Sequence record: OP778610
DNA length: 64,000 nt
DNA from: Escherichia phage W70
Reading direction: 5' to 3' (one strand)
Of this stretch, positions 1,406 through 49,745 are shown in pieces; positions within the stretch are counted from its first letter, which is position 1, and every line of letters starts with the position of its first letter. The notes under the pieces are model-generated. The model had not been told where the DNA came from, searched no databases, and saw only the letters and a program-made list of their open reading frames with translations. The translations under genes were made by a program, and so were the position numbers.

Positions 1406-1422
1406 ATAAAAACTGATAGGAA

Positions 1423-2162: not shown

Positions 2163-2170
2163 TATGTTAA

Positions 2171-2199
2171 GGCCCGCCATTGTGCGGGCCTTTCTTTTA
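2171..2199 (+). terminator. rho-independent terminator
   Basis: GGCCCGC-loop-GCGGGCC hairpin followed by T-tract. Confidence 0.6.
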
Positions 2200-2222
2200 T
2201 GAAAATAATTTTGAAAATGTTG

Positions 2223-2291
2223 TTGACAGCACCGATTAAAAGCGTATGATGTATTACATCAGGACGGGGAACCAAACAAGTAACTCCCCGT
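2223..2291 (+). promoter_or_regulatory. promoter (TTGACA..TATGAT) plus stem-loop
   Basis: Hexamers with 16-bp spacer then hairpin ACGGGGA..TCCCCGT. Confidence 0.4.
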
Positions 2292-2340
2292 TAAGTAGTC
2301 CAGGAGTAAGACATACGAAAACCTCCCCTGATAAAATAGT

Positions 2341-2399
2341 TTGACAATAGTTTTTAGTACTGTATAATACATTACATCAAGGGGAGAATAGTTCTCCCC
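2341..2399 (+). promoter_or_regulatory. promoter (TTGACA-17-TATAAT) plus stem-loop cassette
   Basis: Consensus hexamers; hairpin GGGGAGAATAGTTCTCCCC; RBS then ATG 2420. Confidence 0.55.
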
Positions 2400-2419
2400 A
2401 CATCAAAGGAATCAAAACA

Positions 2420-2647
2420 ATGGCTATCGTAATCACTCGCGTATCTGGTACAGTTGGCAATGCGGCAGTAGTAGCGGTTATCACTAATAAGAAAGGTGCG
2501 GAACTACATTTTGCAATGTATAACTGGTCAGTTGATGAGTTTGGTCAGTACGCTAGTGTAGAATACATTGAAACCTATCAAGTGCCGTCGATTAGTTTAA
2601 CTGATTTGGGCGTTGAGCGTATCCTTTGCCTGGATGAATTAAATTAA
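2420..2647 (+). CDS. hypothetical protein (75 aa)
   Basis: ORF with AAGGAAT RBS after cassette. Confidence 0.5.
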   Translation: MAIVITRVSGTVGNAAVVAVITNKKGAELHFAMYNWSVDEFGQYASVEYIETYQVPSISLTDLGVERILCLDELN

Positions 2648-2655
2648 AAAAGTAC

Positions 2656-2716
2656 TTGCAAAGTAAAACGAATAACGTATAATACATTACATCAAGGGGA
2701 GAAATGATTCTCCCCA
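2656..2716 (+). promoter_or_regulatory. promoter (TTGCAA..TATAAT) plus stem-loop cassette
   Basis: Near-identical 27-mer GTATAATACATTACATCAAGGGGAGAA shared with cassette at 2362. Confidence 0.5.
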
Positions 2717-2732
2717 CTAAGAGGAAACTAAG

Positions 2733-2873
2733 ATGAAAACTTGCCAGTGTGGTAAAAAGTCTATTGCTGGTCTGCGTCGCGGTGTTGCTTTATGCCAGTA
2801 TCATTACAATAGTCAAGTATGGGGTAAAACGTGGGCTGACCAGGTTGAAGCAGCAAAGAAAGCAAAAAAGTAA
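2733..2873 (+). CDS. hypothetical Cys-rich small protein (46 aa)
   Basis: ATG after GAGGAAA RBS; CxC..C pattern; below ORF track cutoff. Confidence 0.4.
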   Translation: MKTCQCGKKSIAGLRRGVALCQYHYNSQVWGKTWADQVEAAKKAKK

Positions 2874-2930
2874 TTGACAGCAGGAAGAAAAAGAGTAAAC
2901 TGTATTACGTAGGGCGGCAATAGCGCCGCC
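2874..2930 (+). promoter_or_regulatory. promoter (TTGACA) plus stem-loop GGCGGCAATAGCGCCGCC
   Basis: Cassette similar to the one at 6724. Confidence 0.45.
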
Positions 2931-2951
2931 ACATCAAAGAGAGAAATCAAA

Positions 2952-3170
2952 ATGGCTAATATCCGCACACTGTTAAAAAATGCAAAAGAAGTTTTATTTT
3001 CTGACGATGAATATTTTAATCGCAATATCAAAGGCGTTCGGAACATTAAGGATATAAAGGAATTATTTGGAATCAAAGGTAACGTATATCGTAAAGGATT
3101 GCACGGTAATAATTTTGAATATAAGTTGGCTGATAGTGATTATAATTTTACACTGACCATCATTAGTTGA
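2952..3170 (+). CDS. hypothetical protein (72 aa)
   Basis: ORF with GAGAGA RBS after cassette. Confidence 0.5.
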   Translation: MANIRTLLKNAKEVLFSDDEYFNRNIKGVRNIKDIKELFGIKGNVYRKGLHGNNFEYKLADSDYNFTLTIIS

Positions 3171-3189
3171 AAGTTTTAATCTAGCGCTA

Positions 3190-3218
3190 TTGACTTAAGC
3201 CGATAGTGCTGGCATAAT
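3190..3218 (+). promoter_or_regulatory. sigma70-like promoter (TTGACT-17-CATAAT)
   Basis: Hexamers; cassette paralogous to promoter at 3483. Confidence 0.45.
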
Positions 3219-3250
3219 AACTTTTATCAAGAACATCAAAGGAAAGTAAA

Positions 3251-3463
3251 ATGGCTATCATTACTAAAATCAAAGTAAACAAAACACTGGTTAAGCTGGA
3301 AGAAGTGAAAGCAGGTTATAAAGTATCTTGGTGTGGCATGTATCGGATGTTCACAGATATAGACGATGCAATCAATTACTACACTAACACGATTAAAAAC
3401 TTTGTTCGTGCTGATGTGATTATTGCAGTGGAAGCACATAAAGCATCGAAAGAAAGTAAGTAA
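3251..3463 (+). CDS. hypothetical protein (70 aa)
   Basis: ORF with AAGGAAA RBS. Confidence 0.5.
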   Translation: MAIITKIKVNKTLVKLEEVKAGYKVSWCGMYRMFTDIDDAINYYTNTIKNFVRADVIIAVEAHKASKESK

Positions 3464-3482
3464 AATTATTACCACAGTACTA

Positions 3483-3511
3483 TTGACAACTACTGATAGT
3501 ACTGACATAAT
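3483..3511 (+). promoter_or_regulatory. sigma70-like promoter (TTGACA-17-CATAAT)
   Basis: Hexamers; shares CTGATAGTACTG..CATAATAACTTTTAT with promoter at 3190. Confidence 0.45.
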
Positions 3512-3556
3512 AACTTTTATTAAGTACTACAAATCAAACAAAGAGAGAATACAATC

Positions 3557-3796
3557 ATGGCTAACAACAAAACTTTTAACGGTCACAAAAACAAAACTCA
3601 TTGGAATGTTTCCTTGTGGATTAATAACGATGCATCACTGTATCGACTGGCTAATGATTTCATCGTCGCTAACACTAATCGTAACGATGCGGCCCGTCAT
3701 ATGATGTTATTTTTAGAACAAACCGGACAACATAAAACACCGGACGGATTCAAGTATAGTACTACTGCAATCCGTGCCGCGATGGTTGGGATGTAA
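3557..3796 (+). CDS. hypothetical protein (79 aa)
   Basis: ORF with GAGAGAA RBS. Confidence 0.5.
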   Translation: MANNKTFNGHKNKTHWNVSLWINNDASLYRLANDFIVANTNRNDAARHMMLFLEQTGQHKTPDGFKYSTTAIRAAMVGM

Positions 3797-3853
3797 TATT
3801 CAGTACTGAATCAATGGCGGGGAATAGTTCCCGCCTTTACTGAGGATTATCTA

Positions 3854-4138
3854 ATGAGCAAAGTAATTAATAGTAAAGTACTGAGTAAAACATTAACACT
3901 CACTGAGTGCACCAATGGCTTTTGGCTATACGATTCTACCCGTGGCATGAATATAGCTATGCAAGCGAAATCAGAGGAGGCTGCATTTGTTGAAGCCCTG
4001 GGATACTATCAGAGACGTCTACAGGAAGTAGAAAACAATTACACCAGCCTTAAAGCGAAAGTAGACCATTTCATCGGGCAAGTGGTAGAAGATGATGAGG
4101 ATGGTCACTATTGCGAACGCTGCGGATCTTACAGCTAA
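3854..4138 (+). CDS. hypothetical protein (94 aa), C-terminal CxxC
   Basis: ORF with GAGGA RBS, preceded by hairpin GGCGGGGAATAGTTCCCGCC. Confidence 0.5.
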   Translation: MSKVINSKVLSKTLTLTECTNGFWLYDSTRGMNIAMQAKSEEAAFVEALGYYQRRLQEVENNYTSLKAKVDHFIGQVVEDDEDGHYCERCGSYS

Positions 4139-4146
4139 AAAAGTAG

Positions 4147-4203
4147 TTGACACAAAGAAACAAAACAAGTAAATTAATCACATCAGGCGGGGAATGGACC
4201 CGC
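4147..4203 (+). promoter_or_regulatory. promoter (TTGACA-17-TAAATT) plus stem-loop cassette
   Basis: About 90% identical to cassette at 6264. Confidence 0.5.
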
Positions 4204-4225
4204 TAAAAGAGAAGAGAGAAATCAA

Positions 4226-4558
4226 ATGAGCTTTTTATCTATCGTACAGACTAACTTTGAAAATGATTTCATTGCTCAAGCTATCAACATCGACAAAGGT
4301 ATCCCAAATATCAATTTTGGTTACAATAGCGGTGGTTATGAAAGATACCAGTATTTTGTAACTGACGATGGAAGTGTTTTAGGTATCAATACAGTGATGG
4401 CTAATATCCAAAACATTAATTTCAATGATCCCGATGAGCGCTCATTTTATATCGTCGGTATCCAGGTAAACTATGAAGATGATACGTTAACCGATGATTA
4501 CACAGGTGAAGTATTAGAAAGTGTTTACGGTGATGAATCAGAAGAAGAAGAAGAATAA
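4226..4558 (+). CDS. hypothetical acidic protein (110 aa)
   Basis: ORF with GAGAGA RBS; C-terminal SEEEEE. Confidence 0.5.
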   Translation: MSFLSIVQTNFENDFIAQAINIDKGIPNINFGYNSGGYERYQYFVTDDGSVLGINTVMANIQNINFNDPDERSFYIVGIQVNYEDDTLTDDYTGEVLESVYGDESEEEEE

Positions 4559-4573
4559 GATTAGAAAAAGTAG

Positions 4574-4633
4574 TTGACGGAAAGAGTATAAAGAAGTAAG
4601 ATAATTAACGAATAGGGGGAAACATCTTCCCCC
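4574..4633 (+). promoter_or_regulatory. promoter (TTGACG-17-TAAGAT) plus stem-loop GGGGGAAACATCTTCCCCC
   Basis: Hexamers and hairpin before ORF 4658. Confidence 0.45.
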
Positions 4634-4657
4634 ATAAACAAAAAGAGAGATTGAAAA

Positions 4658-4840
4658 ATGACAGAACTGATTGCAACTACAAAGATCGAAGGCGTTAACG
4701 ATGTTACTTTGTCCTATGATCCTTCTACTCTGGTTTATGTTGTGAAATATGGCAGAATGATCGCAGAACTTGATTGCATTGATGAGGCTTTCGAAAAATA
4801 TTTCGAACTTATCAATATTGCTTATGATGACTACCGTTAA
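4658..4840 (+). CDS. hypothetical protein (60 aa)
   Basis: ORF with GAGAGA RBS. Confidence 0.45.
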   Translation: MTELIATTKIEGVNDVTLSYDPSTLVYVVKYGRMIAELDCIDEAFEKYFELINIAYDDYR

Positions 4841-4870
4841 TATACAACGTAAAAATAGAAAGGTGATAAA

Positions 4871-5080
4871 ATGATCAATGAAAAAACAATCAATGATGTT
4901 CGCGAGGAAGTTTTAGCCGTTGCTGTAGAATCGGGTGCACGTCAGGCATTTTGGAAAGCTACTGATCTTTACCCCGAGCAAGCCGAAAATATTCTTAATC
5001 AGGTCAGCGTTAAACTTGAACAAATAGGCAAACTGAAAACAAGTGAGCGCCTCGACCAAATCATTAAAGAAAGTTTTTGA
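4871..5080 (+). CDS. hypothetical protein (69 aa)
   Basis: ORF with AAAGGTGA RBS. Confidence 0.45.
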   Translation: MINEKTINDVREEVLAVAVESGARQAFWKATDLYPEQAENILNQVSVKLEQIGKLKTSERLDQIIKESF

Positions 5081-5144
5081 TTGACTTTTAACATTGCCCC
5101 TATTAGTATTCAGGGGCAAGATTAAAAGAAACAAGGACACAAAG

Positions 5145-5456
5145 ATGAACGATATTGTTAGCATTATAGGTTTACTGGGCGTAGGCTACGTCGCCACATC
5201 AATTACAATGAGTTACTTCAATAAAAGGCGTGATAAAATGTTTTGTTACTTTGAATACCGTTACCGTGGTAAGGTTGGATCATCCCGTGACTATGGTCCG
5301 ATGTTAGAGATTGATGCGGTTGGCGCTATGCAGTATCGCCAGTCACTAGGGGCTGAAATAATTTTTGAAGTGTACCGCAGTACAGAAGAAGAGATCCACG
5401 ACATTATTGACGAGCGTCAATATTACCACGAACAACAAACTAAACGCAGGGCTTAA
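5145..5456 (+). CDS. hypothetical membrane protein (103 aa)
   Basis: Start moved to internal ATG with AAGGA RBS; N-terminal TM helix. Confidence 0.45.
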   Translation: MNDIVSIIGLLGVGYVATSITMSYFNKRRDKMFCYFEYRYRGKVGSSRDYGPMLEIDAVGAMQYRQSLGAEIIFEVYRSTEEEIHDIIDERQYYHEQQTKRRA

Positions 5457-5459
5457 CAT

Positions 5460-5597
5460 ATGACTAATACAAACCGACAAAAAATCATCAAAACTAAAAA
5501 ACTTGATTTCAATACTTATCAAGAATGCAAGAAGAAAGTAAAAGATAAGCGAGAGAACAAGCGGCACGAATGGATAAGCAATACAATCGATCTTTAA
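5460..5597 (+). CDS. hypothetical small basic protein (45 aa)
   Basis: ATG 3 nt after previous stop; followed by terminator; below ORF track cutoff. Confidence 0.35.
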   Translation: MTNTNRQKIIKTKKLDFNTYQECKKKVKDKRENKRHEWISNTIDL

Positions 5598-5606
5598 TAT
5601 CAACCT

Positions 5607-5630
5607 AAGCCCACTATGTGGGCTTTTCTT
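5607..5630 (+). terminator. rho-independent terminator
   Basis: AAGCCCAC-loop-GTGGGCTT hairpin plus T-tract. Confidence 0.6.
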
Positions 5631-5643
5631 ATGGAGAACAGAC

Positions 5644-5871
5644 ATGATTAATATTCTTTCACTTACAGAAGTGATCCGCTTCCTCAAAAACAACGCCCTG
5701 GGAACGTCTATAACGTATCTAATCCCGCAAGGTAAGGATTATGCCAGCGTTACACGTTCAATCACTGCTACGGCTTCCAGAGAAGAAATAAAGGTCAGCG
5801 TAAGCCAATTGTTGATTGTTGATCCGTCATCTTGCGAGACTATCCAGGCAGTAAAGATAATTAGAAAATAA
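5644..5871 (+). CDS. hypothetical protein (75 aa)
   Basis: ORF with GGAGAA RBS. Confidence 0.4.
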   Translation: MINILSLTEVIRFLKNNALGTSITYLIPQGKDYASVTRSITATASREEIKVSVSQLLIVDPSSCETIQAVKIIRK

Positions 5872-5956
5872 TTTAAAAAACTTCTTGCATCCATTATTGA
5901 GAAGATGTACATTAGTTTCATCAAGACGAGATGATGACAATCAAAAGGTGATTACT

Positions 5957-6250
5957 ATGTTATACGAAGTTTTTGCGGGATTTTGTTTTTATGGTGCTGC
6001 CGCCGTTCGCCAATGTGATGATTATGTAGTTGAGTCATTCGATGATCCTTTGGCGTGTGAGATTGTTACTACGGCGTATGAGCAAGATCGCCGTTGGATT
6101 AATCCGGCCTGTATCGCATCGCCTGAGGTTGAACCTATGCCGGAAGGTGAGGAATTAACAGAGGAAGACTTGCAAGAAGTAAAAGAAGTTATGAGCTACA
6201 TGATTGATAATCTGGACGCTGAAAACTTACAACGGGCTTTGCAAAAATAA
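5957..6250 (+). CDS. hypothetical acidic protein (97 aa)
   Basis: Start moved to ATG with AAGGTG RBS. Confidence 0.45.
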   Translation: MLYEVFAGFCFYGAAAVRQCDDYVVESFDDPLACEIVTTAYEQDRRWINPACIASPEVEPMPEGEELTEEDLQEVKEVMSYMIDNLDAENLQRALQK

Positions 6251-6263
6251 TTTGAAAAAGTAG

Positions 6264-6320
6264 TTGACTCAAAGAAGCAAAACAAGTAAATTATTCACAT
6301 CAGGCGGGGAATGGCCCCGC
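6264..6320 (+). promoter_or_regulatory. promoter (TTGACT-17-TAAATT) plus stem-loop cassette
   Basis: Paralogue of cassette at 4147. Confidence 0.5.
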
Positions 6321-6336
6321 TAAACAAAAAGAGATT

Positions 6337-6717
6337 ATGAAAATGGCTAAAAATACTAACGTTTGTGATTACGCTAACCTGGTTACTCTGAATGCAGATT
6401 CTAAAATTAAACTAAGCGAGGTTGAAGCTATTCATATTCTGGCCCGTCGTTGGTTCCAACAATCATACGGCAATACTTATTTCTCTTTAAGTGTAGACGT
6501 GGAGATCGCTGGTAAATTGGTTCAAGTGGTTAGCGTGCCGTTCCAATATGGTTATGGTGATCATTTCGATACCGTGGCACTAGAAGAATTTAGCAAGGTT
6601 ATCAACATGGAAGGCAAGGAGTTTTCACGCGGTAGCTATCTATCCCGTTTTTGCCGTGACAACAATATCCCTGTTTATTCGAACGCCGTTGATGTTAAAC
6701 GCAAAAAAGATATGTAA
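6337..6717 (+). CDS. hypothetical protein (126 aa)
   Basis: ORF with AAGAGA RBS after cassette. Confidence 0.5.
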   Translation: MKMAKNTNVCDYANLVTLNADSKIKLSEVEAIHILARRWFQQSYGNTYFSLSVDVEIAGKLVQVVSVPFQYGYGDHFDTVALEEFSKVINMEGKEFSRGSYLSRFCRDNNIPVYSNAVDVKRKKDM

Positions 6718-6723
6718 TTATTA

Positions 6724-6782
6724 TTGACAGTACAAAGAAAACGAGTAAACTGTATTACATAGAAAGCGGGAACACTTCCCGC
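6724..6782 (+). promoter_or_regulatory. promoter (TTGACA..TAAACT) plus stem-loop GCGGGAACACTTCCCGC
   Basis: Paralogue of cassette at 2874. Confidence 0.45.
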
Positions 6783-6804
6783 TTATATTCTAGGAGTAAG
6801 AGAA

Positions 6805-7158
6805 ATGATCGAACAAATCAAAACTACGACGGCTAATGTAACGGGAACGGTAGCACACTTTACTAGTGATGAATCGCGGGGCGTTCCCTATTGTGCTGTA
6901 CATGTAAACACTGAGGGTAACTACTGGTTTACGGTTTACGGATCATATTCATTTGGACGGCCAGGGCATCAAAAAATTCTGGATAAAGTACAACCAACGG
7001 GTAAAAATATTACCGCTGAGATGTTTAATAAATCACTTGCAAAGTTAAAAGCACTGAAAGATTTTGGCTTTAAAGATCTAGTTATCAAACGTGATGAAAA
7101 ATTCCGCTTCCGTAATGATCTGGCAAATCGCTACTATGAAATCTATGAAGCACTTTAA
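6805..7158 (+). CDS. hypothetical protein (117 aa)
   Basis: ORF with AGGAG RBS. Confidence 0.5.
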   Translation: MIEQIKTTTANVTGTVAHFTSDESRGVPYCAVHVNTEGNYWFTVYGSYSFGRPGHQKILDKVQPTGKNITAEMFNKSLAKLKALKDFGFKDLVIKRDEKFRFRNDLANRYYEIYEAL

Positions 7159-7164
7159 TAAAAA

Positions 7165-7186
7165 GGGCCGCAATAGCGGCCTTTTC
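7165..7186 (+). terminator. rho-independent terminator
   Basis: GGGCCGCAATAGCGGCC hairpin plus TTTTC. Confidence 0.55.
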
Positions 7187-7268
7187 TATTGACACCTGCT
7201 AACCATTCCTTTAATATGCATCTTGTAGGGCAAGCAATAACGCAAGCCCACAAATAGGACAAACTATT

Positions 7269-7466
7269 ATGACCATCGCTAATGAACTGATCGCCGTATT
7301 GAATGAAGCCAAATCTAATGAAATCGATGTACAGATCAAGGAATTACCCAATGGCCTGATAGGTTGCACTTGCACCTGTATCGGAAGTGACTACACAGAG
7401 GTAAGCTCTCTAGAATCTCTCATTCGTCACTTGAAATCAATAGTTGAAGATTGGAGAATCATCTAA
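7269..7466 (+). CDS. hypothetical protein (65 aa)
   Basis: ORF; last gene of plus-strand early block. Confidence 0.45.
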   Translation: MTIANELIAVLNEAKSNEIDVQIKELPNGLIGCTCTCIGSDYTEVSSLESLIRHLKSIVEDWRII

Positions 7467-7603
7467 TAAACCAGGGGCCGCAATAGTGGCCCTTGTCATG
7501 TCCATCGGTGCGACTCTCCCAACCCTATTAATCCCTTCCCCATTTGGATCATCATAACTTACCTCATCTAATCATTAATCTAATCCCCTTTGGAATCTCT
7601 CCC

Positions 7604-8011
7604 CCACAAATCTAAACTAATCTGATAGCTTACCATAACATAATCCACAAAGAAAGAACTATTTTGCCCACAAAGAAAGGCAGTTTTAAAGAGATACCAT
7701 TGCCAGAGTATGGAGGTGGCGCGACCGTAGGGAGCGACACTATAAAACGAGTATACCCCTCCTACCGCTATGCGGTCATCGGTGATAACCGATATCGTTA
7801 CACGCTATCTGTTCTCTTCGTTTCCTCGTTTTATAGTGTCTATATGTAGTAATCTTTTATTCTTTGTCAATACATTATCGAAGATAATATTGAATTATTT
7901 AATGCTTTGTTATTCATATAAAGTGAATAGCTAGTCAATAGGAAGGCCGTTAGTGTGACCACACAAAGAGGCTATGCACCACAAAGAGAGGCCGTACTTG
8001 CCCACAAAAGG
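7604..8011. repeat. array of six CCACAAAG(A/G)(A/G) direct repeats (DnaA-box-like)
   Basis: Copies near 7604, 7645, 7668, 7959, 7978, 8001; TAATCCACA at 7642. Confidence 0.6.
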
Positions 8012-8117
8012 AGCAAACAAGCAAGGCGGTACGCCAGTTTGCTAATGAGCGTAGCTCTTTTGCTAGACAAAACTCTCTTCTCTCTTCTTTCCCAAAATAA
8101 ATTTTTTCTTGCTTTTA

Positions 8118-8285
8118 TTGCCAGAGTATGGCGGGGCGCTCAGGCTATTGATGGCCCTGATGGAGTCGCTCCTGCACAGTTGGGATAGTTCATCGTTGGA
8201 TAGTCACAAGTTGGTATTATTCTTCCCACTAGTTGGAACAGGCCAGAACTGGCGGGGCTTGGAGTCGCTCCACTTGTTGGACGGA
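8118..8285. repeat. duplicated TTGCCAGAGTATGG segment plus five GTTGG-type repeats
   Basis: TTGCCAGAGTATGG at 7700 and 8118; GGAGTCGCTCC twice; GTTGG every 15-20 bp. Confidence 0.55.
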
Positions 8286-8631
8286 AGAAGGGCGCTTGCA
8301 GTGCGTATAAGTTGTATTATGTTAAATGCAGATCGAAATCGGTATTCTAAACCAGATTCAGAAGTCAATAGAAATCTTTAACTTTATTGTTGGGGCAGCA
8401 CAACATTTTTCTTGACAAGTCGAATCAAAGATGTATTGTGGATTGAAAATAAATGAAGATAATGCTTGACTTCTTGGATATTTTGAAAACATCGGACCCC
8501 CTCCCCCTCCCCCACGGTCGCCGTGCCTGGCAGCAGTATCGATACGCTAGGATATTTTAGCCCCTACTGGACAAGACACCCCCCCGTCAGTTATAATGGG
8601 GGTATACCTATAGAAAAGTAAGGAGGTTGTA

Positions 8632-24858: not shown

Positions 24859-25254
24859 TTATAGGCATTTCACACCATAAATGATCATCAATACAACAAG
24901 TGTCAGTGTATAGATCAAACTCCCATAAAGTCCATGACTGGTGATTTTAAGCTTTTTCTTAAAGCACATCATTGTACTATAAATTACACCAGTCCAGTGA
25001 ATCACTAAAATCGCGGTGGCAATATCTGAAACATTACCCGCCCAAAGCATCAGAGAGTATGAGAGGTACATTGCAAAACCTGATAGCAGGAATGTAAACA
25101 AATAACCAATTACACTTTTCTTTTTCTGATATACGATTTTATTTTTCATGGTATCGATGTTCAGATTGTAATAGGCAACTGCCACTATCTGGATAATCAG
25201 CCCCAAGATAAAGAAAGAGATCAGTGTAACGTATTCAAAAATTGGTGCAGTCAT
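24859..25254 (-). CDS. hypothetical integral membrane protein (4 predicted TM)
   Basis: Four hydrophobic helices. Confidence 0.5.
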   Translation of the reverse strand: MTAPIFEYVTLISFFILGLIIQIVAVAYYNLNIDTMKNKIVYQKKKSVIGYLFTFLLSGFAMYLSYSLMLWAGNVSDIATAILVIHWTGVIYSTMMCFKKKLKITSHGLYGSLIYTLTLVVLMIIYGVKCL

Positions 25255-25652
25255 TATAATTTCTCCTCAATAATTTCAGAAATGAGATTCGAGATCTCGA
25301 AAGTTTCTAACTCTTCGACGTGTGACAAGCGCTGGAGGCGCTCGATAACAAAGTCTTTCTTCACAAATACATCCGACAAATGCTCAATGTCCTGCTTACC
25401 ACGCATTCCGCTAACCAACTGCTTGTATCGGATGAGTTCAATATACTCCTCTTTAGACATTACTGTCAAGCGTTCATCTGCACAAATATGCAAAAATACT
25501 TGCTTGCTGTCCCAGTCAAATCCTCTGTACACTGCCTCTACTTCACGGCGTGGTGTCCCGCCCAGTGTTACATGACCAACCTCAACAGGGATAGATACCT
25601 GATCATCAGGTCGGCACTGCTGCAACTCCTCAATCAATTCAGAAACTTTCAT
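25254..25652 (-). CDS. hypothetical protein (132 aa)
   Basis: ORF. Confidence 0.5.
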   Translation of the reverse strand: MKVSELIEELQQCRPDDQVSIPVEVGHVTLGGTPRREVEAVYRGFDWDSKQVFLHICADERLTVMSKEEYIELIRYKQLVSGMRGKQDIEHLSDVFVKKDFVIERLQRLSHVEELETFEISNLISEIIEEKL

Positions 25653-25654
25653 AG

Positions 25655-26110
25655 TTACCCCTGCTTAAGCTTGAAAGATTTAAATGCTTCGATAAAGTCC
25701 ATTTCTTTTTGCGTATACTTATGATCGATTGTATCAGCGAAAAGAGGGCAACGACCATCAACCAACTTCACATCCCACAGATGTTGAGGGAGAATAAATG
25801 CAATGGCTGTAAGTGCACCATTCAAAGAATCATTCTCCTCGCAGAAAAATGCGTAAGGAATCTTCTCTATGTTTGGAGCTAAAAATCCTTCTGCAAAATT
25901 AAGCATCTTAGATTGATAGCCTCCGTTCAACAAGATCATTGTTTGGTCTTTGCTTTGCCACTGATCTACAAGGTTGTATCTGTCATCATATCGATCGGCA
26001 TAGGCAAAGCCATAATGACCTACAAGGTTTGCTGCTGCATGTGCTGCTTGGATACCTGCTTGGATTCCCATCATATAGCTGTTTACCAATACGTACATCC
26101 GAGTTTTCAA
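25655..26110 (-). CDS. hypothetical protein, possible Pth2-like peptidyl-tRNA hydrolase fold
   Basis: N-terminal MYVLVN..MGIQAGIQAAHAAANL resembles the Pth2 MGKGKxAAQxxHA region (recalled, weak). Confidence 0.35.
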   Translation of the reverse strand: MKTRMYVLVNSYMMGIQAGIQAAHAAANLVGHYGFAYADRYDDRYNLVDQWQSKDQTMILLNGGYQSKMLNFAEGFLAPNIEKIPYAFFCEENDSLNGALTAIAFILPQHLWDVKLVDGRCPLFADTIDHKYTQKEMDFIEAFKSFKLKQG

Positions 26111-26427
26111 TTCTTACCTCCGAAAATTCTTTTTGCAAATTTTTCATTACCTAACGTCATGTTGTAGAAAACTATAATTGAATAGACAATCCACGCAAGG
26201 ACATAAAATAAAATCAAGAAAGGCCAGCCCACAAACCAAAACACTGTCATTATTAACCAGCCCGTCATAAGGAGTTTATAATTAACATTCCCGTGATTTA
26301 AAGGGTCAAGTAAGTTACTGTTCTCTGGCAGGGTGATACGAAACCCACCTTGACGAAGCTTGATCAAAAAGAACCAAGCAGCAGAACTTATAATGCAACA
26401 TAAAATATATATCAGTAATCCTGTCAT
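26107..26427 (-). CDS. small membrane protein, tandem paralogue A (106 aa)
   Basis: Shares FLIKLRQ.GF.I..P and three TM helices with the next gene. Confidence 0.5.
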   Translation of the reverse strand: MTGLLIYILCCIISSAAWFFLIKLRQGGFRITLPENSNLLDPLNHGNVNYKLLMTGWLIMTVFWFVGWPFLILFYVLAWIVYSIIVFYNMTLGNEKFAKRIFGGKN

Positions 26428-26753
26428 TTTTTAACTCCGAAGATCTTAGATAGTAATTTATCATTCCCGATAGTTACACCACAAAAACTTTTTACTCCGT
26501 ATACTAGATACGACCCGATTGTAACACAGATAATGATCGGATAAACAAGATACCAAAAGAATGTTGCAAGTATCCACCCTGCCATCACCATACGTAAATT
26601 TACATTTTCGTTATTCAGTGGCTCCAGGATATAAATATCCTCACAATCTTTTGGGAAGGGGATGTTGAACCCCTTCTGCCGTAATTTGATCAGTAAGAAC
26701 CAAAGTGGGCAACTAATAAGACAACCTATTAAATAACCTTCAACCATTTTCAC
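26424..26753 (-). CDS. small membrane protein, tandem paralogue B (109 aa)
   Basis: Paralogue of 26107..26427. Confidence 0.5.
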   Translation of the reverse strand: MKMVEGYLIGCLISCPLWFLLIKLRQKGFNIPFPKDCEDIYILEPLNNENVNLRMVMAGWILATFFWYLVYPIIICVTIGSYLVYGVKSFCGVTIGNDKLLSKIFGVKK

Positions 26754-27990
26754 TCTCCTTCAACTTGTCAAGATATTGTGTAACGTATCTTACTTTTACA
26801 TTTCGGATTCTGCTCTTGATCTCATCTGGACGTCCCGCGAATTTTTCAGAAATCTCTTTACTTTCTTTTGAGATTGCAACACTGTTCTGAATAATCCCCG
26901 CCAGTGCTGAGAATAATACCAGTGGTTGACTGTAGTTGTCAAACATTTTTTCAGGTCCACGCCCACGAGCATCACAGATGCAAGCGTCAATAAATTCAGA
27001 GAGGAATGCTTGGTCCTTTTCACCACGTAAGGCTACTAACAAGTCATAAACTTTCTTTGGCTTCATTTCTTTGATACGGTGAAGTCGTGTATGATGCTCA
27101 GTTACAGCTAAAGCCAACTTCTTCCAATTATTGGGGACACCAAAGCGATCACAAACTTGTTCAGTTAACTTGATACCATGTTCTTCGTGACCGTGCAGTT
27201 TACCCGTTAGCCAATAAATACATTTACCTAAGTCGTGACAAAGGACTGCCCACTTCACAGCCTCACTTGCACGAGTCGCCTGGGCATAATCCATGCAAAG
27301 TAAAGTGTGAACAAATGCATCACCTTCAGGATGGTGCTCCTTGGGTTGAACAACATCGTATAAATCCACAAGCTCAGGAAATTCTCCCAGTTGAGTCAAC
27401 ATACGGATCATTACCGAAGGTTTATTCATTTCTGACTGATCACTGAAGCATTTCTTAATCTCTGCAAATTTACGCTCTTTTGGCAATGCACTTAAATCCA
27501 CACTCCGACACATTAGCCAAGTGTCAGGATCAATTGTAAACTCACCGCCGTATCTGGCATGTAATCTGGCTAGTCGGTACACACGTAAAGGGTCTTCGAT
27601 AAATGCTTTAGTGGATACACAACGTAACCGACGAAGTTCAATATCCATTGCACCATTACAAGGGTCGATAATTTCGCCCGTGGAAATATCCTTGGCGATC
27701 GCATTAATGGTTAAATCTCTTCGCATCAGGTCTTGTTCAATTGTAACGTCTGGAGAGAACACAACTTCGAAATCGTGATAACCAGGGCCTGTTGATCTTT
27801 CCGTTCGAGCAAGAGCATACTCTTCTTTAGTGTTCGGTTCAAGGTACACAGGGAAAGCTGCACCAACCTTAGTAAATCCCTTCTCAATCATTTCTTCATG
27901 GGTCGCTCCAACTACAACGTAGTCACGATCCTTGCTTTCAACACTCATTAGTTCATCGCGAACTGCACCACCTACCAAGTAAACTTTCAT
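26740..27990 (-). CDS. cca: CCA tRNA nucleotidyltransferase with HD domain
   Basis: MKVYLVGGAVRD..DRDYVVVG head motif; HDLGK HD motif; close to recalled E. coli Cca. Confidence 0.9.
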   Translation of the reverse strand: MKVYLVGGAVRDELMSVESKDRDYVVVGATHEEMIEKGFTKVGAAFPVYLEPNTKEEYALARTERSTGPGYHDFEVVFSPDVTIEQDLMRRDLTINAIAKDISTGEIIDPCNGAMDIELRRLRCVSTKAFIEDPLRVYRLARLHARYGGEFTIDPDTWLMCRSVDLSALPKERKFAEIKKCFSDQSEMNKPSVMIRMLTQLGEFPELVDLYDVVQPKEHHPEGDAFVHTLLCMDYAQATRASEAVKWAVLCHDLGKCIYWLTGKLHGHEEHGIKLTEQVCDRFGVPNNWKKLALAVTEHHTRLHRIKEMKPKKVYDLLVALRGEKDQAFLSEFIDACICDARGRGPEKMFDNYSQPLVLFSALAGIIQNSVAISKESKEISEKFAGRPDEIKSRIRNVKVRYVTQYLDKLKESENG

Positions 27991-28028
27991 TCCTTCTTCT
28001 CCCATTCTTTCCAATTCTGCATGTCCGC

Positions 28029-28193
28029 TCATAGCCATCCCCTTTCTTTATACCCTTTTGTAAATCCTGATTCCCAATCTTGAAATTGCTCCGGCATGGT
28101 GTTTGGATTATACGGGTTGTTTCTCTTGAACATCCCAAACTTGAATCCAGCGGCTCGGCCCTTCTCGTATGCTGAACTGCTTTTTCTTGTCAT
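28029..28193 (-). CDS. hypothetical small basic protein (54 aa)
   Basis: Start at ATG after AAGAGGAGAA RBS. Confidence 0.4.
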   Translation of the reverse strand: MTRKSSSAYEKGRAAGFKFGMFKRNNPYNPNTMPEQFQDWESGFTKGYKERGWL

Positions 28194-28519
28194 ACTCTTT
28201 CTCCTCTTAAATTTAAAGACCAATCTTTTATTTCTTCTTTCCAGTTCGTATTTCTCTTAATGTCTTGCTTTTGACCGCGAAGATAGTTAATGATCTCAAG
28301 CGGGTCTTGCTTAACAAAAGAAATATTGTCGATCGGGCACTCAACTAACTTAAGCATCCTTTCAAAACGATTATACTCATCTTCTGATTTCGGTGCAACA
28401 GGAATAACATCATAATCTTCAAGATTGTCGAGAGTTTCAAGGGTAACCCTCATCTCGTAGCCTTCTAATCTCTTTGTCTTGATACCAAACACTCTTCGAA
28501 AGTAAATGTAATATTTCAT
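28190..28519 (-). CDS. hypothetical protein (109 aa)
   Basis: ORF. Confidence 0.5.
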   Translation of the reverse strand: MKYYIYFRRVFGIKTKRLEGYEMRVTLETLDNLEDYDVIPVAPKSEDEYNRFERMLKLVECPIDNISFVKQDPLEIINYLRGQKQDIKRNTNWKEEIKDWSLNLRGERV

Positions 28520-28572
28520 TATGTTCTCCTACTTAATGATCATCATTATACACATCCCTGAATTCAAGTCAA

Positions 28573-28600
28573 CAAAAAAGGCCACCCGAAGGTGACCTTT
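28573..28600 (-). terminator. rho-independent terminator (minus strand)
   Basis: GGTCACC-loop-GGTGGCC hairpin plus T-run. Confidence 0.55.
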
Positions 28601-28604
28601 AAAT

Positions 28605-29114
28605 TTAAGGGTGAATCCAGTAAAAAGGTTTTGTTAAACCAAGTTTACCTTTCGGGTCCCAAATGAAGTAGGCATACGCCGCACCATCTGTTTTCCCATC
28701 CTCAGTAAAAGAGGGTCGCTTGGATAGAGTAACCAAGTGATCAACAGGATATTCCTTCCAGAACTCCACACGTTTGGTACTCTCAAGGAAACCTAAACGA
28801 AGCAGCATTATCACCACATCAGCATCCTTGTGAGCCTTCTCTACAAACTCTTGAGCTAAATTATAAGGTGGGTTAGTTAACACACAATCTACCTTATTGT
28901 ATTTAGTTGCAAGATAATCAACACCTTCTTGAATCTCTCCCCAAGCTGAACCAATTGGCATTTCATTATAAAAACGTCCAGAGGCTCTGCAAGGTTCCAG
29001 ATAAGTCCAATCCTGACGGATTGGAACTAAATTCAAGAAAGCATCTACTGCCCATTTCGGAGTTTCATAGCGATCATTTTCACGGCGCTCTGCTTTAGGT
29101 TTCAATGCTGCCAC
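28605..29114 (-). CDS. putative phage Dam-type DNA N6-adenine methyltransferase (169 aa)
   Basis: NPPY catalytic motif (CVLTNPPYN); small size. Confidence 0.5.
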   Translation of the reverse strand: MAALKPKAERRENDRYETPKWAVDAFLNLVPIRQDWTYLEPCRASGRFYNEMPIGSAWGEIQEGVDYLATKYNKVDCVLTNPPYNLAQEFVEKAHKDADVVIMLLRLGFLESTKRVEFWKEYPVDHLVTLSKRPSFTEDGKTDGAAYAYFIWDPKGKLGLTKPFYWIHP

Positions 29115-34698: not shown

Positions 34699-35082
34699 TT
34701 AAGGGTAGAGTTTATGAGGGAGTTGGAAATGAGGACCATCTTTAAATGAAGTCCAATCACCGCCCCACTCAATCGGGATGTTTAATTCTTTTGCTGCATC
34801 CTTAACAGCTTCTGCCATCGGGTAATAATATTTCCAGTCCCAAGTAACCGATCCGTTAACCAAAGGCCACAAATCTACAGCATGTCCGGTCAGATGACGA
34901 CTATTCATCGTTTTACTCTTACCTTCTGCAACATACTTACGTTGGGTTTCTATTGTACGTAGACCTTCACCAACAGTAAAGTCAATCGTACTCTTTTTGA
35001 TTGCCAGTTTCACAACTTCAACCAAGTCGGGATGAACGCCCTTAAGACGTTCAATACTCCGTTTACCTAATACAAATCCCAT
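34699..35082 (-). CDS. endolysin, L-alanyl-D-glutamate peptidase (M15 family)
   Basis: SRHLTGHAVDL zinc motif; size and layout as recalled for T5 Lys. Confidence 0.8.
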   Translation of the reverse strand: MGFVLGKRSIERLKGVHPDLVEVVKLAIKKSTIDFTVGEGLRTIETQRKYVAEGKSKTMNSRHLTGHAVDLWPLVNGSVTWDWKYYYPMAEAVKDAAKELNIPIEWGGDWTSFKDGPHFQLPHKLYP

Positions 35083-37555: not shown

Positions 37556-37611
37556 CCTTTCCTCCTGTCTCGTTTATGTGATTTATTATACGGATTACTT
37601 TACCAAAGTCA

Positions 37612-37637
37612 ATAAAAAACCGCCCCAAAGGGCGGTT
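37612..37637 (-). terminator. rho-independent terminator (minus strand)
   Basis: ACCGCCC-CAAA-GGGCGGT hairpin plus T-run. Confidence 0.65.
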
Positions 37638-48687: not shown

Positions 48688-49193
48688 TTTCCTCTAAAGT
48701 TGCCTTCCAGTTCAGGGTATTTTTCATTTTTTAGATCGAGGTAAGCTTGTTTTGCTTCCTCTTCTGTTTTGCAATACTTCACGTACTCTCGACCACCCCT
48801 GTTAAGTCTTGCTTGCCAGCAATTACTCTTTTTATGCCAACGATAACCTTTACTCAGTGACCTGTTTACGTTGTTTGCAGATCTATCGACTTCTCGCAGA
48901 TTCCAACCTGCATTATTTTGTCTATTCCCGTCTATGTGATCAATATCTCCAAGAGGCCAATACCCATTAAGAATGAAAAACACAACTCTATGCGCCCTAT
49001 AAGTTTTGTCATTAAGATTCCCGTAAAAATAATTACGATCTCCTTTCTTACATGTTGTGAAGGCGGGATCTCCTATCTCAGACCTTATTCTCTTTATCTT
49101 CCAACGAAGACCTGTATAACTTGACTCATCAACCCCCAGCGATAACTTTATATTTTCAAGTTCCTCCTCGGTTGGGACTCTAACTTTTGTCAT
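48684..49193 (-). CDS. HNH homing endonuclease (HNH_3/AP2-type)
   Basis: YTGLRWK; DHIDGNRQNNAGWNLREVDRSAN. Confidence 0.8.
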   Translation of the reverse strand: MTKVRVPTEEELENIKLSLGVDESSYTGLRWKIKRIRSEIGDPAFTTCKKGDRNYFYGNLNDKTYRAHRVVFFILNGYWPLGDIDHIDGNRQNNAGWNLREVDRSANNVNRSLSKGYRWHKKSNCWQARLNRGGREYVKYCKTEEEAKQAYLDLKNEKYPELEGNFRGK

Positions 49194-49745
49194 TTAATAT
49201 GCCTCACATTTACCAATCATATTCATAGCTTCAGAAACATCGATAATCATATCGGTTGCTTCGTCCCAAGCTTTCCCCAAGAGATTCTCACCATACCAGA
49301 AACTTTCATCATCTACCATAGGGTGATTCTCATCCATACCGATCCCCCATATACGATCTCTCGGAGAAGCCTCTACAAACTTTAAACCCTTTTTACGGTA
49401 ACCTACCGCAAGTTCACGGAGATTACCATTATCACACATACGACTATACACTAAACGGGTTACAATGTTAAATTTATTTTCATCCCAAACTGCCTGATCA
49501 AAATCCTTAACTTTACGACCTAGCCTTTTAGCACCTTGTGGAGTTACAGATTTAAGGATTCTTTCCGCTGAAGCTTTGTCACCGAAAAGCATAGCCTTTT
49601 CATACATCATGTAATGCTCACCTGTGTGGAAATAAACCCCTTTCATCTTCTGGTCGAAGTTTGAAAACGGAGAGATCTCCTGGTAATGATTACTAAAAAC
49701 ATCACGAAAAGAATAAAAGAACACATGTTTATCAGTGACTCGCAT
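49194..49745 (-). CDS. NADAR/YbiA-like (DUF1768) domain protein
   Basis: FFYSF..FSNH..P, KFVEASPRDRIWGIG; start at ATG after AGGAG RBS. Confidence 0.55.
   Translation of the reverse strand: MRVTDKHVFFYSFRDVFSNHYQEISPFSNFDQKMKGVYFHTGEHYMMYEKAMLFGDKASAERILKSVTPQGAKRLGRKVKDFDQAVWDENKFNIVTRLVYSRMCDNGNLRELAVGYRKKGLKFVEASPRDRIWGIGMDENHPMVDDESFWYGENLLGKAWDEATDMIIDVSEAMNMIGKCEAY

Follow-up and report, generated by a model that had tools for sequence, protein, structure and literature searches.

Two stacked, divergent members of a small phage-only membrane protein family in Escherichia phage W70 look like holin-type lysis or phage-exclusion proteins

Gene order and expression signals at the locus

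The window, i.e. the whole stretch of 64,000 nucleotides of Escherichia phage W70 (OP778610) that was analysed, belongs to a lytic Septuagintavirus (Vequintavirinae). At the locus described here it is 99.9% identical to Escherichia phage A73, and the first 9 kb of the window differ from that phage. Two stacked genes at the locus encode divergent members of a single small family that is confined to phages. Both open reading frames listed in a preliminary description of this DNA are present at the coordinates it gave, and they are encoded on the minus strand, which went unmentioned there. The following features were recognized.

34699..35082, minus strand: soluble endolysin-type peptidase in the preceding transcription unit (phrog_465, 4.3e-66)
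28577..28600, minus strand: rho-independent terminator-like hairpin AAAGGTCACCTTCGGGTGGCCTTT followed by a T run (scan; conserved in 9 lineages)
28545..28572, minus strand: sigma70-type promoter TTGACT-N16-TATAAT with TGTG before the -10 element (11/12 match; conserved in 9 lineages)
26740..28032, minus strand: CCA-adding tRNA nucleotidyltransferase (PolyA_pol head PF01743, 3.2e-19; HD domain PF01966, 1.4e-8; A73 annotation)
26755..26760, minus strand: Shine-Dalgarno sequence AAGGAG of the upstream copy, in the 3'-terminal part of the CCA-enzyme gene (read from sequence)
26424..26747, minus strand: upstream copy (A'; A73_225 homologue), 107 aa (open reading frame, A73 annotation, phrog_17692 match, Shine-Dalgarno spacing)
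26435..26438, minus strand: Shine-Dalgarno sequence GGAG of the downstream copy, 7 nt before ATG 26427 (read from sequence)
26107..26427, minus strand: downstream copy (A; A73_226 homologue), 106 aa (open reading frame, phrog_17692 match, tblastn, tree, AF2 model)
26117..26121, minus strand: Shine-Dalgarno sequence GGAGG of the PTH-like gene, which has a TTG start at 26110 (read from sequence)
25655..26110, minus strand: PTH-like "hydrolase", directly downstream of A (phrog_3668, 6.3e-37)
25254..25652, minus strand: A73_228 homologue, soluble (phrog_12566)
24859..25254, minus strand: A73_229 homologue, about 4 TM segments (phrog_12739, "membrane protein")

The upstream reading frame had been given as 26424..26753. 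It exists at that length, but its start is most likely the ATG at 26747, which yields the 107 aa of the A73 annotation. The AAGGAG element (26760-26755) lies 7 nt from this ATG and 1 nt from the in-frame GTG at 26753; the latter would add two residues, MK, and is too near the Shine-Dalgarno sequence. A lambda-S-like dual start, GTG-AAA-ATG (MKM), was ruled out on the same spacing. The reported overlap of the two reading frames by 4 nt was found as the sequence ATGA at 26424-26427.

The signals for translation of each gene are placed within the gene before it. The CCA-enzyme gene lies directly upstream of A' and overlaps its start by 8 nt. The GGAG element of the downstream copy is built from the conserved C-terminal F-G codons of the upstream copy (TTCGGAG), and the GGAGG element of the PTH-like gene comes from F-G-G codons that are conserved in the downstream copy, the stop codon of which overlaps the next start in TTGA (26107-26110). 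The latter arrangement is likewise present before the PTH-like gene in CR8 and PcCB7V. The overlapping stop and start codons, together with the embedded ribosome-binding sites, show a chain of predicted translational coupling that runs from the CCA-enzyme gene through A' and A to the PTH-like gene. The PTH-like protein has no sequence relative in the PDB; its counterpart in phage PcCB7V is annotated as peptidyl-tRNA hydrolase. In most lineages of the gene-order table, the A73_228 and A73_229 homologues keep synteny with the family.

The promoter at 28545..28572 probably starts a unit comprising the homologues of A73_222 and 223, the CCA-enzyme gene, A', A, the PTH-like gene, 228 and 229. Perfect matches to this promoter class number 5 in the window, where 0.26 would be expected, and the sequence agrees with the putative early/middle consensus reported for Certrevirus (PMC7344957). 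The hairpin at 28577..28600, unique in the window, closes the preceding unit, which contains the gene of the endolysin-type peptidase (M15C; PMC11370258) and has a promoter of the same class at 37585-37612. A candidate late motif, TGnTAAAATA, derived from four regions 5' of structural genes, has no minus-strand match in the window and is uninformative on timing.

A small family with exchangeable subtypes

The preliminary description regarded the two proteins as paralogues, and the alignment between them is indeed significant. BLASTP gives 42/103 identities (41%) with an E value of 2e-30, and the Smith-Waterman score of 242 compares with 30.6 ± 5.9 in global shuffles (z 36) and 36.6 ± 7.9 in shuffles preserving the layout of TM segments and loops (z 26). 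In a negative control, another pair of neighbouring small membrane ORFs of phage A73 (48982-49610 in the coordinates of the A73 record) reached only E 3.5. Therefore, the similarity is not an artefact of hydrophobic composition. The quoted motifs, LIKLRQ[GK]GF.I..P and LLDPLNHGNVN / LEPLNNENVN, were also found. Neither copy is a pseudogene, the second objection that had been foreseen; both are intact in five related phages and under strong purifying selection, with dN/dS of 0.04-0.08 for the upstream copy and 0.08-0.09 for the downstream copy and dS of up to 1.0 across these comparisons. A "frameshift" in DU_PP_I and DU_PP_IV was considered as pseudogene evidence and rejected. It consists of one extra G in a TGGGCCCC run of an otherwise near-identical gene, and the fact that the adjoining gene of PHROG 11979 (B) is broken too suggests a sequence error.

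The description of small membrane proteins with an N-terminal TM helix and two further ones holds: three TM segments are predicted, the last two forming a hairpin. Hydropathy places the hydrophobic segments of the family at 4-22, 52-67 and 70-90, and these are matched by the helices of the AF2 model of the downstream copy (2-26, 41-44, 50-62, 64-90 and 95-102; pLDDT 83.8). Mean K+R counts over 30 family members are 0 in the N terminus, 5.1 in loop 1, 0 in the turn between TM2 and TM3 and 3.9 in the tail. From this charge distribution an N-out/C-in orientation is inferred, with a periplasmic N terminus and with the conserved loop and the short basic tail in the cytoplasm. The predicted cytoplasmic loop of about 28 residues reads K-x-R-Q-x-G-[FWY]-x-I-x-x-P ... 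L-x-P-[LI]-N, and the short tail, T-x-G-N-E-K-[LF]-A-[RK]-[RK]-I-F-G-G-K-x, holds on average 3.9 K+R and 1.7 D+E in 16 residues. Mean column identity is 0.65 in the loop and 0.72 in the tail against 0.48 in TM3, and R25, G28, P34 and P42 are invariant or almost so. The conservation of the tail is due in part to the ribosome-binding site embedded there.

Residues 4-106 of the downstream copy match positions 3-107 of the phrog_17692 profile (E 1.5e-32), and residues 5-108 of the upstream copy, a divergent subtype, match positions 4-106 (E 3.6e-21). A distant member, P0012, matches the same profile with E 6.3e-19. The family is tiny, narrow and restricted to phages, with 13 representatives among 1.84 billion proteins. 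It had no match in Pfam (default thresholds and E up to 5), NCBIfam or PADLOC, the family profile found no PDB sequence, and a Foldseek search of BFVD and PDB with the pLDDT-84 model returned only the protein itself.

Comparison of related genomes, a check proposed in the preliminary description, revealed 0, 1 or 2 copies. The downstream copy is 53-57% identical (tblastn) to the single-copy Certrevirus genes, its closest subtype, which stands alone in CR8 and others. P0010, the nearest relative of the upstream copy, stands alone in the lineage L026, and a 114-aa subtype occurs by itself in L019/L020. In a neighbour-joining tree the downstream copy groups with the single-copy Certrevirus-type genes and the upstream copy forms a deep branch with P0010; bootstrap values, weakly resolved with such short sequences, are 44% and 59% for these groupings and 16% for the two copies as sisters. 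Moreover, a second pairing of subtypes arose independently in uncultured phages (L015/L016/L028/L029). The term "tandem duplicated" is therefore accurate as to adjoining homologues and too simple as to their history, since the copies are not clearly sisters, their subtypes occur solo elsewhere and a second pairing exists. The family is truncated or absent in the cultured, plaque-forming phages phiTE (the lineage L007), CB7 and SSBI34, it is absent from the rV5- and PVP-SE1-type relatives, and its gene is relocated in some genomes, lying within an unrelated early region in FBKp34. The family is thus shown to be an exchangeable accessory module.

Possible roles of the pair

Superinfection exclusion, immunity and holin/antiholin functions had been listed as roles of such proteins. 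The holin-type role gains from the predicted class I topology and from the position of P0012 next to an endolysin gene; none of the characterised holins, antiholins, Imm/Sp or further exclusion proteins is homologous to the pair. The single likeliest reading, which is put forward tentatively, is that of class-I-holin-like lysis proteins. Both proteins would build up in the inner membrane and make it permeable, and the signal-less endolysin would thereby gain access to the cell wall. As two variants each able to act alone, the copies would raise the dosage or adjust the time of lysis, and they would not be a holin/antiholin pair; a division of labour of the latter kind is unlikely, as each subtype occurs solo in other phages and the MKM start is implausible.

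The holin-type reading is preferred because in one uncultured lineage a family member lies directly 5' of the endolysin gene and overlaps it. On contigs from two samples (L022/L025 and L023), the P0012 gene is found directly upstream of a GH19 endolysin gene (phrog_181, 1.9e-63), with a 4-nt overlap, in a slot beside PhoH; the window endolysin (34699-35082) occupies the equivalent PhoH-side slot. This adjacency represents one evolutionary event, in which the family gene entered the resident endolysin gene at its 5' end and took the place of the N-terminal domain, and the insertion there could be due to chance. A search for P0012 in viral and metagenome contigs returned no further endolysin-adjacent members. 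The endolysin-type peptidase of the window has no signal sequence and, according to a TM scan, no adjoining membrane protein. No holin has been named for Septuagintavirus (PMC11370258), and only distant 2-TM candidates have been proposed for Certrevirus (PMC7344957) and for the related phage BME3 (PMC12210895).

Several observations bear on how far a role in lysis can be taken. Searches of Pfam, NCBIfam and the PHROG lysis families (E up to 5), and of BFVD and PDB with Foldseek, revealed no similarity to holin sequences or folds, which does not exclude holin function, because holin families are mutually unrelated. The operon promoter is of a type read as early/middle in the Certrevirus literature, and this counts against the holin reading; timing as such is no objection, since the endolysin unit and the unit of the pair share one promoter class. 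That conservation is best in the cytoplasmic loop and tail is unusual for holins and also counts against it. The family cannot be the sole holin of the group, because it is truncated or absent in plaque-forming phiTE, CB7 and SSBI34; its loss there is compatible with the holin reading, PHROG 11979 being kept in that region. Finally, with about 26 membrane proteins per Certrevirus genome (PMC9769974), the prior for any single one being the holin is low.

An exclusion or other membrane takeover role is nearly as likely as a holin-like one. A function in superinfection exclusion, in other phage-versus-phage conflict or in anti-defence is possible. The proteins would be made soon after infection from the sigma70-type promoter and inserted in the inner membrane, where they may block DNA entry of later related phages or neutralise a membrane-associated defence of the host, and two stacked, divergent variants may widen the range of targets. 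Consistent with this are the small size and predicted inner-membrane location of the proteins, the host-type promoter of their operon with its early/middle assignment in Certrevirus, and the narrow, phage-only distribution of the family. The genes are also non-essential, occurring in 0, 1 or 2 copies and truncated in phiTE/CB7, and their subtypes are self-sufficient and were combined twice independently, in the clade of the window and in L015/L016/L028/L029. Moreover, the pair forms a sharply bounded, deeply divergent allelic block, a pattern typical of arms-race cassettes: between two allele groups of the five phages its dS is 0.6-1.0 against 0.0-0.2 in flanking genes, and nucleotide identity is 83-88% inside the two-gene block and 98-100% immediately downstream. 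However, this support is generic throughout and holds nothing specific to exclusion, and mosaicism is similar in holin genes. The low dN/dS (0.05-0.09) gives no sign of diversifying selection, and Pfam, PHROG and PADLOC revealed no similarity to Imm, Sp, Cor, Sie, Llp or PADLOC families. The conserved motifs are, in addition, predicted to be cytoplasmic, whereas the machinery of an incoming phage arrives in the periplasm.

The same conserved regions may point to a host-takeover factor with no direct role in lysis or exclusion, a reading that is about as possible as exclusion. The cytoplasmic loop and the juxtamembrane tail would bind and modulate a host or phage partner in the cytoplasm or inner membrane, for example a transporter or protease, or the machinery of division or of envelope stress. 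Conservation peaks in exactly these predicted cytoplasmic parts, and the pair probably shares its transcription unit with genes of metabolism and host interaction. Most small phage membrane proteins function outside lysis and exclusion, which, with the number of membrane proteins in each Certrevirus genome, also favours such a role. However, no partner was identified and there is no domain homology, the embedded ribosome-binding site explains some of the tail conservation, and the relocation beside an endolysin gene is left unexplained.

A more far-reaching proposal, which is doubtful, would have PHROG 17692 determine compatibility among strictly lytic phages by allele type. Each subtype would identify one group for exclusion or for lysis timing, cassettes would be swapped among co-infecting relatives, stacking would broaden the group, and the family would be interchangeable with PHROG 11979. 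If true, a modular membrane-protein slot would govern competition among Certrevirus and Septuagintavirus phages.

A membrane partner or tether for tRNA-repair-type enzymes (the CCA-adding enzyme, the PTH-like hydrolase and an RlaP-family nucleotidyltransferase) is improbable. In most lineages the family gene does come directly after the CCA gene, with translational coupling between the two, and this holds even at protein identities below 30%. However, lineage L018 has A, B, 228 and C but lacks CCA, PTH and RlaP, L025 retains only a 141-aa CCA remnant and carries its family gene elsewhere, and the FBKp34 gene is in its unrelated early region; conversely, phiTE, CB7, SSBI34 and PVP-SE1 have the enzymes without the family. 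An obligatory functional coupling to these enzymes is ruled out by this pattern of presence and absence. The idea of a decaying duplicate, or of similarity by chance or composition, has one hint in its favour, the greater divergence of the upstream copy (its identity to single-copy relatives is about 40%, and that of the downstream copy about 55%), and is refuted by the shuffle z-scores of 26-36, intact copies in five phages with dN/dS of 0.04-0.09, good ribosome-binding sites in both genes and end-to-end matches of both proteins to the PHROG profile.

Significance and comparison with known systems

Summarizing, the pair looks like lysis (holin-type) or phage-exclusion proteins, which is no surprise, and it is a previously uncharacterised family within an already known kind of small membrane protein. 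The literature on Certrevirus, Septuagintavirus and the wider rV5-like phages holds no experimentally identified holin, and phages of these groups are in development for biocontrol and therapy. PHROG 17692 and its slot-mate PHROG 11979 are concrete and cheaply testable holin candidates. Should they turn out to act in exclusion or takeover, the phages that naturally carry 0, 1 or 2 copies and different combinations of subtypes would form a comparative set on the diversification of small membrane effectors in lytic phages. Either outcome would give a function to a "hypothetical" family, and no general principle would be changed.

Both window proteins are members of PHROG 17692, matching its profile over the full length, but this assignment brings no functional information, as GenBank entries are labelled "hypothetical protein" or, as in PcCB7V, left unannotated. 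PHROG 11979 ("membrane protein"; Certrevirus, phiTE, CB7) shares the genomic region with the family and resembles it in size (about 99 aa) and in plan, with TM1, a charged loop and a long hydrophobic hairpin, but it is unrelated in sequence (profile-profile comparison with hhalign: probability 0.9%, E 0.063). Phages in which the family is truncated or missing (phiTE, CB7, SSBI34) have PHROG 11979, and two-copy genomes lack it. The complementarity of A and B is not strict, several lineages having one copy of A and no B; in every lineage examined this region encodes A, B or some other small membrane protein.

T4 Imm and Sp are likewise small, non-essential inner-membrane proteins of a large lytic phage, confined to a narrow phage group, and expression from a host-type promoter is probably common to both systems; they have no homology to the pair, and both their number of TM segments and their predicted topology are different. 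A single membrane event may also be served by two or more small membrane proteins, as in SPP1 (gp24.1/gp26) and mycobacteriophage D29 (LysA2a/LysA2b). The two-holin sets of these phages resemble the pair in having more than one such protein, but they are mostly non-paralogous and jointly needed, whereas each of the window subtypes stands alone elsewhere. In comparison with class I holins (lambda S105, P22 gp13), the family has a long conserved cytoplasmic loop and is dispensable in phiTE/CB7, and the window pair carries no credible dual-start motif and lies 8 kb from the endolysin gene, in another transcription unit. What the family shares with these holins is a size of 105-114 aa, three predicted TM segments, the predicted N-out/C-in orientation and a short basic tail.

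Homology and integrity of the two genes

The two genes lie next to each other on the minus strand of the window:

26107..26427, minus strand: downstream copy (A), ORF of 106 aa
26424..26753 as read, 26424..26747 (107 aa) from the ATG, minus strand: upstream copy (A'); the GenBank annotation uses ATG 26747

The coordinates first read for the downstream ORF were retained, as was the 4-nt overlap (ATGA). The upstream ORF, in contrast, more likely begins at ATG 26747, because the AAGGAG at 26760-26755 precedes this codon by 7 nt and GTG 26753 by only 1 nt. The sequence motifs quoted as shared were found in both proteins, which align end to end with 41% identity (E 2e-30). The Smith-Waterman score was 242, against 31 +/- 6 in global shuffles (z 36) and 37 +/- 8 in shuffles within TM and loop segments (z 26), and two other neighbouring ORFs for small membrane proteins, from Escherichia phage A73 (OP778609), showed no homology (E 3.5). 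This control pair, A73_90/A73_89 (A73 record 48982-49610, outside the window), is 3-TM-like and also overlaps by 4 nt. Since the shuffles and the control pair score far lower, the similarity reflects homology and not hydrophobic composition, and the observation made in the preliminary description is correct and statistically solid.

Both ORFs are intact, in an unchanged arrangement, in five phages (A73, A7_1, UPEC06, LTH01 and A5-4). Comparison of the allele groups {window, A7_1, UPEC06} and {LTH01, A5-4} revealed strong purifying selection on both copies:

Substitution rates between the two allele groups
26424-26747, upstream copy: dS 0.61-1.04, dN about 0.05, dN/dS 0.05-0.08
26107-26427, downstream copy: dS 0.68-0.72, dN 0.059, dN/dS 0.08-0.09

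This selection refutes the view that one copy is a pseudogene; either that or an artefactual similarity is regarded as extremely improbable. In UPEC06 (L014 847-2188) two ORFs make up the gene of the CCA-adding tRNA nucleotidyltransferase (CCA), which carries a fragment annotation, whereas the membrane-protein genes that follow it are both intact and encode the same protein sequences as in the window.

Predicted topology and expression signals

Hydropathy analysis indicated an N-terminal TM segment (residues 4-22) followed by a 39-residue hydrophobic stretch, which a conserved G-W-P turn divides into helices 52-67 and 70-90. The mean number of K+R residues over 30 family members was 0 at the N terminus, 5.1 in the loop after TM1, 0 in the TM2-TM3 turn and 3.9 in the C-terminal tail. 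Because the basic residues sit in the loop and the tail, the positive-inside rule predicts three TM helices with an N-out/C-in orientation, in line with the N-terminal helix and two further TM helices proposed at the outset. The AlphaFold2 model based on a 30-sequence alignment (mean pLDDT 83.8) contained helices 2-26, 41-44, 50-62, 64-90 and 95-102; with a 6-sequence alignment the pLDDT was only 67.

The loop (K-x-R-Q-x-G-[FWY]-x-I-x-x-P...L-x-P-[LI]-N) and the tail (G-N-E-x-[LF]-A-[RK]-K-I-F-G-G-K) are the most conserved parts. In both family alignments Y7, R25, W64 and F102 are invariant, and L21, G28 and P34 invariant or nearly so; 90% conservation was reached by W18 and P42 only in the 17-sequence alignment and by P65 only in the 30-sequence alignment. 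A part of the tail conservation results from overlap with a translational signal, since the F-G-G codons TTCGGAGG serve as the Shine-Dalgarno sequence (SD) of the next gene in both window genes and in relatives.

The CCA, A', A and PTH-like hydrolase genes are chained by stop/start overlaps of 8, 4 and 4 nt, with a good SD before each start. Upstream of the pair, between a DNA methyltransferase gene and the A73_222 homologue, an intergenic hairpin-promoter element (28545-28600, minus strand) is conserved nearly base for base in nine divergent lineages.

Translation and transcription signals
26117-26121 and 26435-26438 in the window, also near 5275-5285 in the phage loci L002 and L003: Phe-Gly(-Gly) codons doubling as SD
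28600-28577, minus strand: strong terminator-like hairpin AAAGGTCACCTTCGGGTGGCCTTTTTT, promoter directly after it
28572-28545, minus strand: putative sigma70-type promoter from a sequence scan, TTGACT-N16-TATAAT with extended -10
2341-2368 (plus), 28545-28572, 37585-37612, 51903-51930 and 54737-54764 (all minus): TTGAC-N16-18-TATAAT sites

The hairpin sequence also occurs in the structural region of A73 (record about 6270-6300). The putative promoter fits the sigma70-like consensus proposed for CB7 as the Certrevirus early/middle promoter (PMC7344957). Perfect TTGAC-N16-18-TATAAT sites number five in the window, where 0.26 would be expected by chance, and the -10 region is GTATAAT at all four minus-strand sites. 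These sites look like a promoter set that partitions the extended run of minus-strand genes into separate transcription units. The 37612-37585 site heads the preceding unit, which holds an endolysin-type peptidase (34699-35082, phrog_465). The pair and the endolysin are thus probably driven by a common promoter class, and because of this the promoter type carries little weight on either side of the question of a lysis role. A candidate late motif derived from upstream of the structural genes (TGnTAAAATA) had no minus-strand match within the window.

Distribution, copy number and allelic exchange

Both proteins match PHROG 17692, a family already catalogued and annotated as hypothetical, of unknown function. 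Neither matched Pfam, even at E up to 5, and NCBIfam and PADLOC gave no match; a family-profile search of PDB sequences gave no match, and Foldseek found no relatives in BFVD or PDB. Searching 1.84 billion representative proteins with a profile yielded 13 matches, 11 of them full-length (105-114 aa), and a 5.8-billion-cluster collection yielded 28 clusters. A tblastn search of 50,697 phage records detected the family in just 28. Besides the five E. coli phages and FBKp34, a single phage of the Stephanstirmvirinae, these are Certrevirus-type phages infecting Cronobacter, Pectobacterium, Enterobacter, Pantoea and Klebsiella.

The window was assigned to Septuagintavirus, a genus within Vequintavirinae (PMC11370258), and its source is a very close relative of A73, with 100% identity over 25000-29000, 99.9% over the whole of 9432-48991, and about 93-97% with indel or rearranged blocks in the first 8.5 kb. 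Window 1-9431 is a hypervariable early-gene region with many small ORFs, and some 6.7 kb of A73 (record roughly 78.7-85.4 kb) is unmatched.

Gene order from profile and phmmer searches over all fetched loci (A'', deep 114-aa subtype; B, PHROG 11979; C, A73_229-type membrane protein; 228, A73_228 homologue; RlaP, RlaP-family nucleotidyltransferase; L numbers, phage loci or contigs)
Certrevirus: CCA > A > PTH-like > B > 228 > C > RlaP-type nucleotidyltransferase
Window clade: CCA > A' > A > PTH-like > 228 > C > RlaP, without B
Uncultured clade L015/L016/L017/L028/L029: CCA > A (P0006) > A'' (P0034/P0015) > PTH-like and so on, without B
L019/L020, close relatives of that clade: A'' alone
L026: P0010 alone after CCA; of all relatives, closest to the upstream copy in the window (44%)
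L006, L021, L024: one copy, without B
L030, L027: A then B
L018: A > B > 228 > C, without CCA, PTH and RlaP
FBKp34: family gene in an unrelated early region
Position of B: L007 6155-6454; L002 5742-6041; L018 6327-6629; L026 921-1217; L033 4973-5272

Related genomes carry zero, one or two copies. In the uncultured clade A'' is 28-30% identical to A, from which a 10-nt gap separates it. At 375 aa, the RlaP product of the window is shorter than those of L006 (683 aa; 2162-4213) and DU_PP_I (about 700 aa; L008 4928 onward), whose inserted middle part is intein-like or homing-endonuclease-like in appearance.

In the NJ tree the downstream copy groups with single-copy Certrevirus-type genes (bootstrap 44%) and the upstream copy lies on a deep branch (59% with P0010), so the tandem duplication first proposed is an old event at best. 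Tree support for both placements appears weak; two homologous adjacent copies do exist, but a recent origin in situ lacks support (16% as sisters). An equally good fit is that unequal recombination among related phages stacked two diverged alleles of one slot, and two-copy stacking arose at least twice, with different partners. In the comparisons of the same allele groups, the flanking PTH-like, 228, 229 and RlaP genes had dS of only 0.0-0.23. Nucleotide identity was 83-88% exactly across the pair (window about 26127-26750) and 98-100% directly downstream. Because the divergence is confined to the two genes, the pair behaves as a single exchangeable cassette with two old alleles.

Candidate functions

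The roles suggested in the preliminary description (superinfection exclusion, immunity or holin/antiholin) seem reasonable as proposals. A holin-type lysis function is a tentative reading, short of probable, with the most specific support. The gross architecture would be that of a class I holin, and the family protein P0012 (L022/L025 and L023, two samples) is encoded between a phrog_12288 gene and a GH19 endolysin, overlapping the endolysin start by 4 nt, in a slot next to PhoH that is the endolysin slot in the window and L018. The endolysin of these phages is signal-less and no holin has been identified: the Septuagintavirus paper names none (PMC11370258), and the Certrevirus (PMC7344957) and BME3 (PMC12210895) papers give only small 2-TM candidates elsewhere in the genome, one of them missing in CR9. 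In A73 (record 56342-57066, outside the window; L009, L010) a 70-aa 2-TM ORF comes after, and overlaps, the gene of a signal-peptide SleB-like hydrolase; this ORF corresponds to the one put forward in CB7 as a class II holin candidate.

However, the endolysin adjacency is a single event. The GH19 proteins of the P0012 lineage and of L018 are orthologues (69% identity; PhoH 76%), and the former has lost its N-terminal domain, which points to an insertion of P0012 that could be fortuitous; P0012 queries of viral and metagenome contigs found no further endolysin-adjacent members. In this lineage the CCA gene is cut down to a 141-aa remnant (L025 13220-13645), and the 18.6 kb of L025 examined showed no PTH-like, B, C or RlaP gene. 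The long, conserved, predicted cytoplasmic loop also argues against a holin, and about 26 membrane proteins per Certrevirus genome compete for this role (PMC9769974).

A further objection is dispensability. In the IMG/VR contig L007, whose B protein is 100% identical to that of the phiTE and CB7 loci, the family gene retains about 48 codons, L takes the place of the invariant R25 and the PTH-like gene is deleted. CB7 shares this order: a short remnant is all that is left of A, and the PTH-like gene is again missing. In Salmonella phage SSBI34 the order is CCA > PTH-like > B without a family gene, and PVP-SE1, lacking both A and B, has a different 72-aa 2-TM protein after CCA. As phages without an intact copy are cultured and plaque-forming, the family is not essential for phiTE, CB7, SSBI34 and PVP-SE1. 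The apparent frameshift in DU_PP_I/DU_PP_IV was rejected as a probable sequence error (one extra G in homopolymer context, adjoining B also broken). The objection is softened because no lineage examined lacks all of A, B and other small membrane proteins in the region, a rule biased by the finding of most loci through searches for A. B has a similar plan and an unrelated sequence, occurs in every Certrevirus record as well as in phiTE, CB7 and SSBI34 (none of these three with an intact family copy), is absent from both two-copy clades, and may be a functional analogue. Division of the two copies into holin and antiholin is unlikely, since either subtype occurs by itself in other phages and a dual start is not credible.

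The main rival to the holin-type reading is an early membrane role in competition or takeover, which would cover superinfection exclusion, anti-defence and the modulation of a host partner. It agrees with the host-type promoter, the dispensability, the varying copy number, the stacked self-sufficient subtypes, the deep allelic block and the narrow distribution, but none of these features is specific to it; an exclusion or anti-competitor function is doubtful taken singly, and another cytoplasm-facing takeover role equally so. Partnership with the tRNA module is very unlikely, as some lineages keep the family or the tRNA enzymes and not both, which contradicts an obligatory link. Five tRNA genes (Met, Tyr, Gly, Gln, Pro) are clustered at 61414-63124 on the plus strand, as background to the CCA-adding and PTH-like enzymes of the phage.

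Summarizing, the pair provides a concrete candidate for a holin or an exclusion protein in phages without a known holin, and the zero-, one- and two-copy genomes with their subtype combinations form a natural series usable for experiments. The family would be a new one within a known functional kind.
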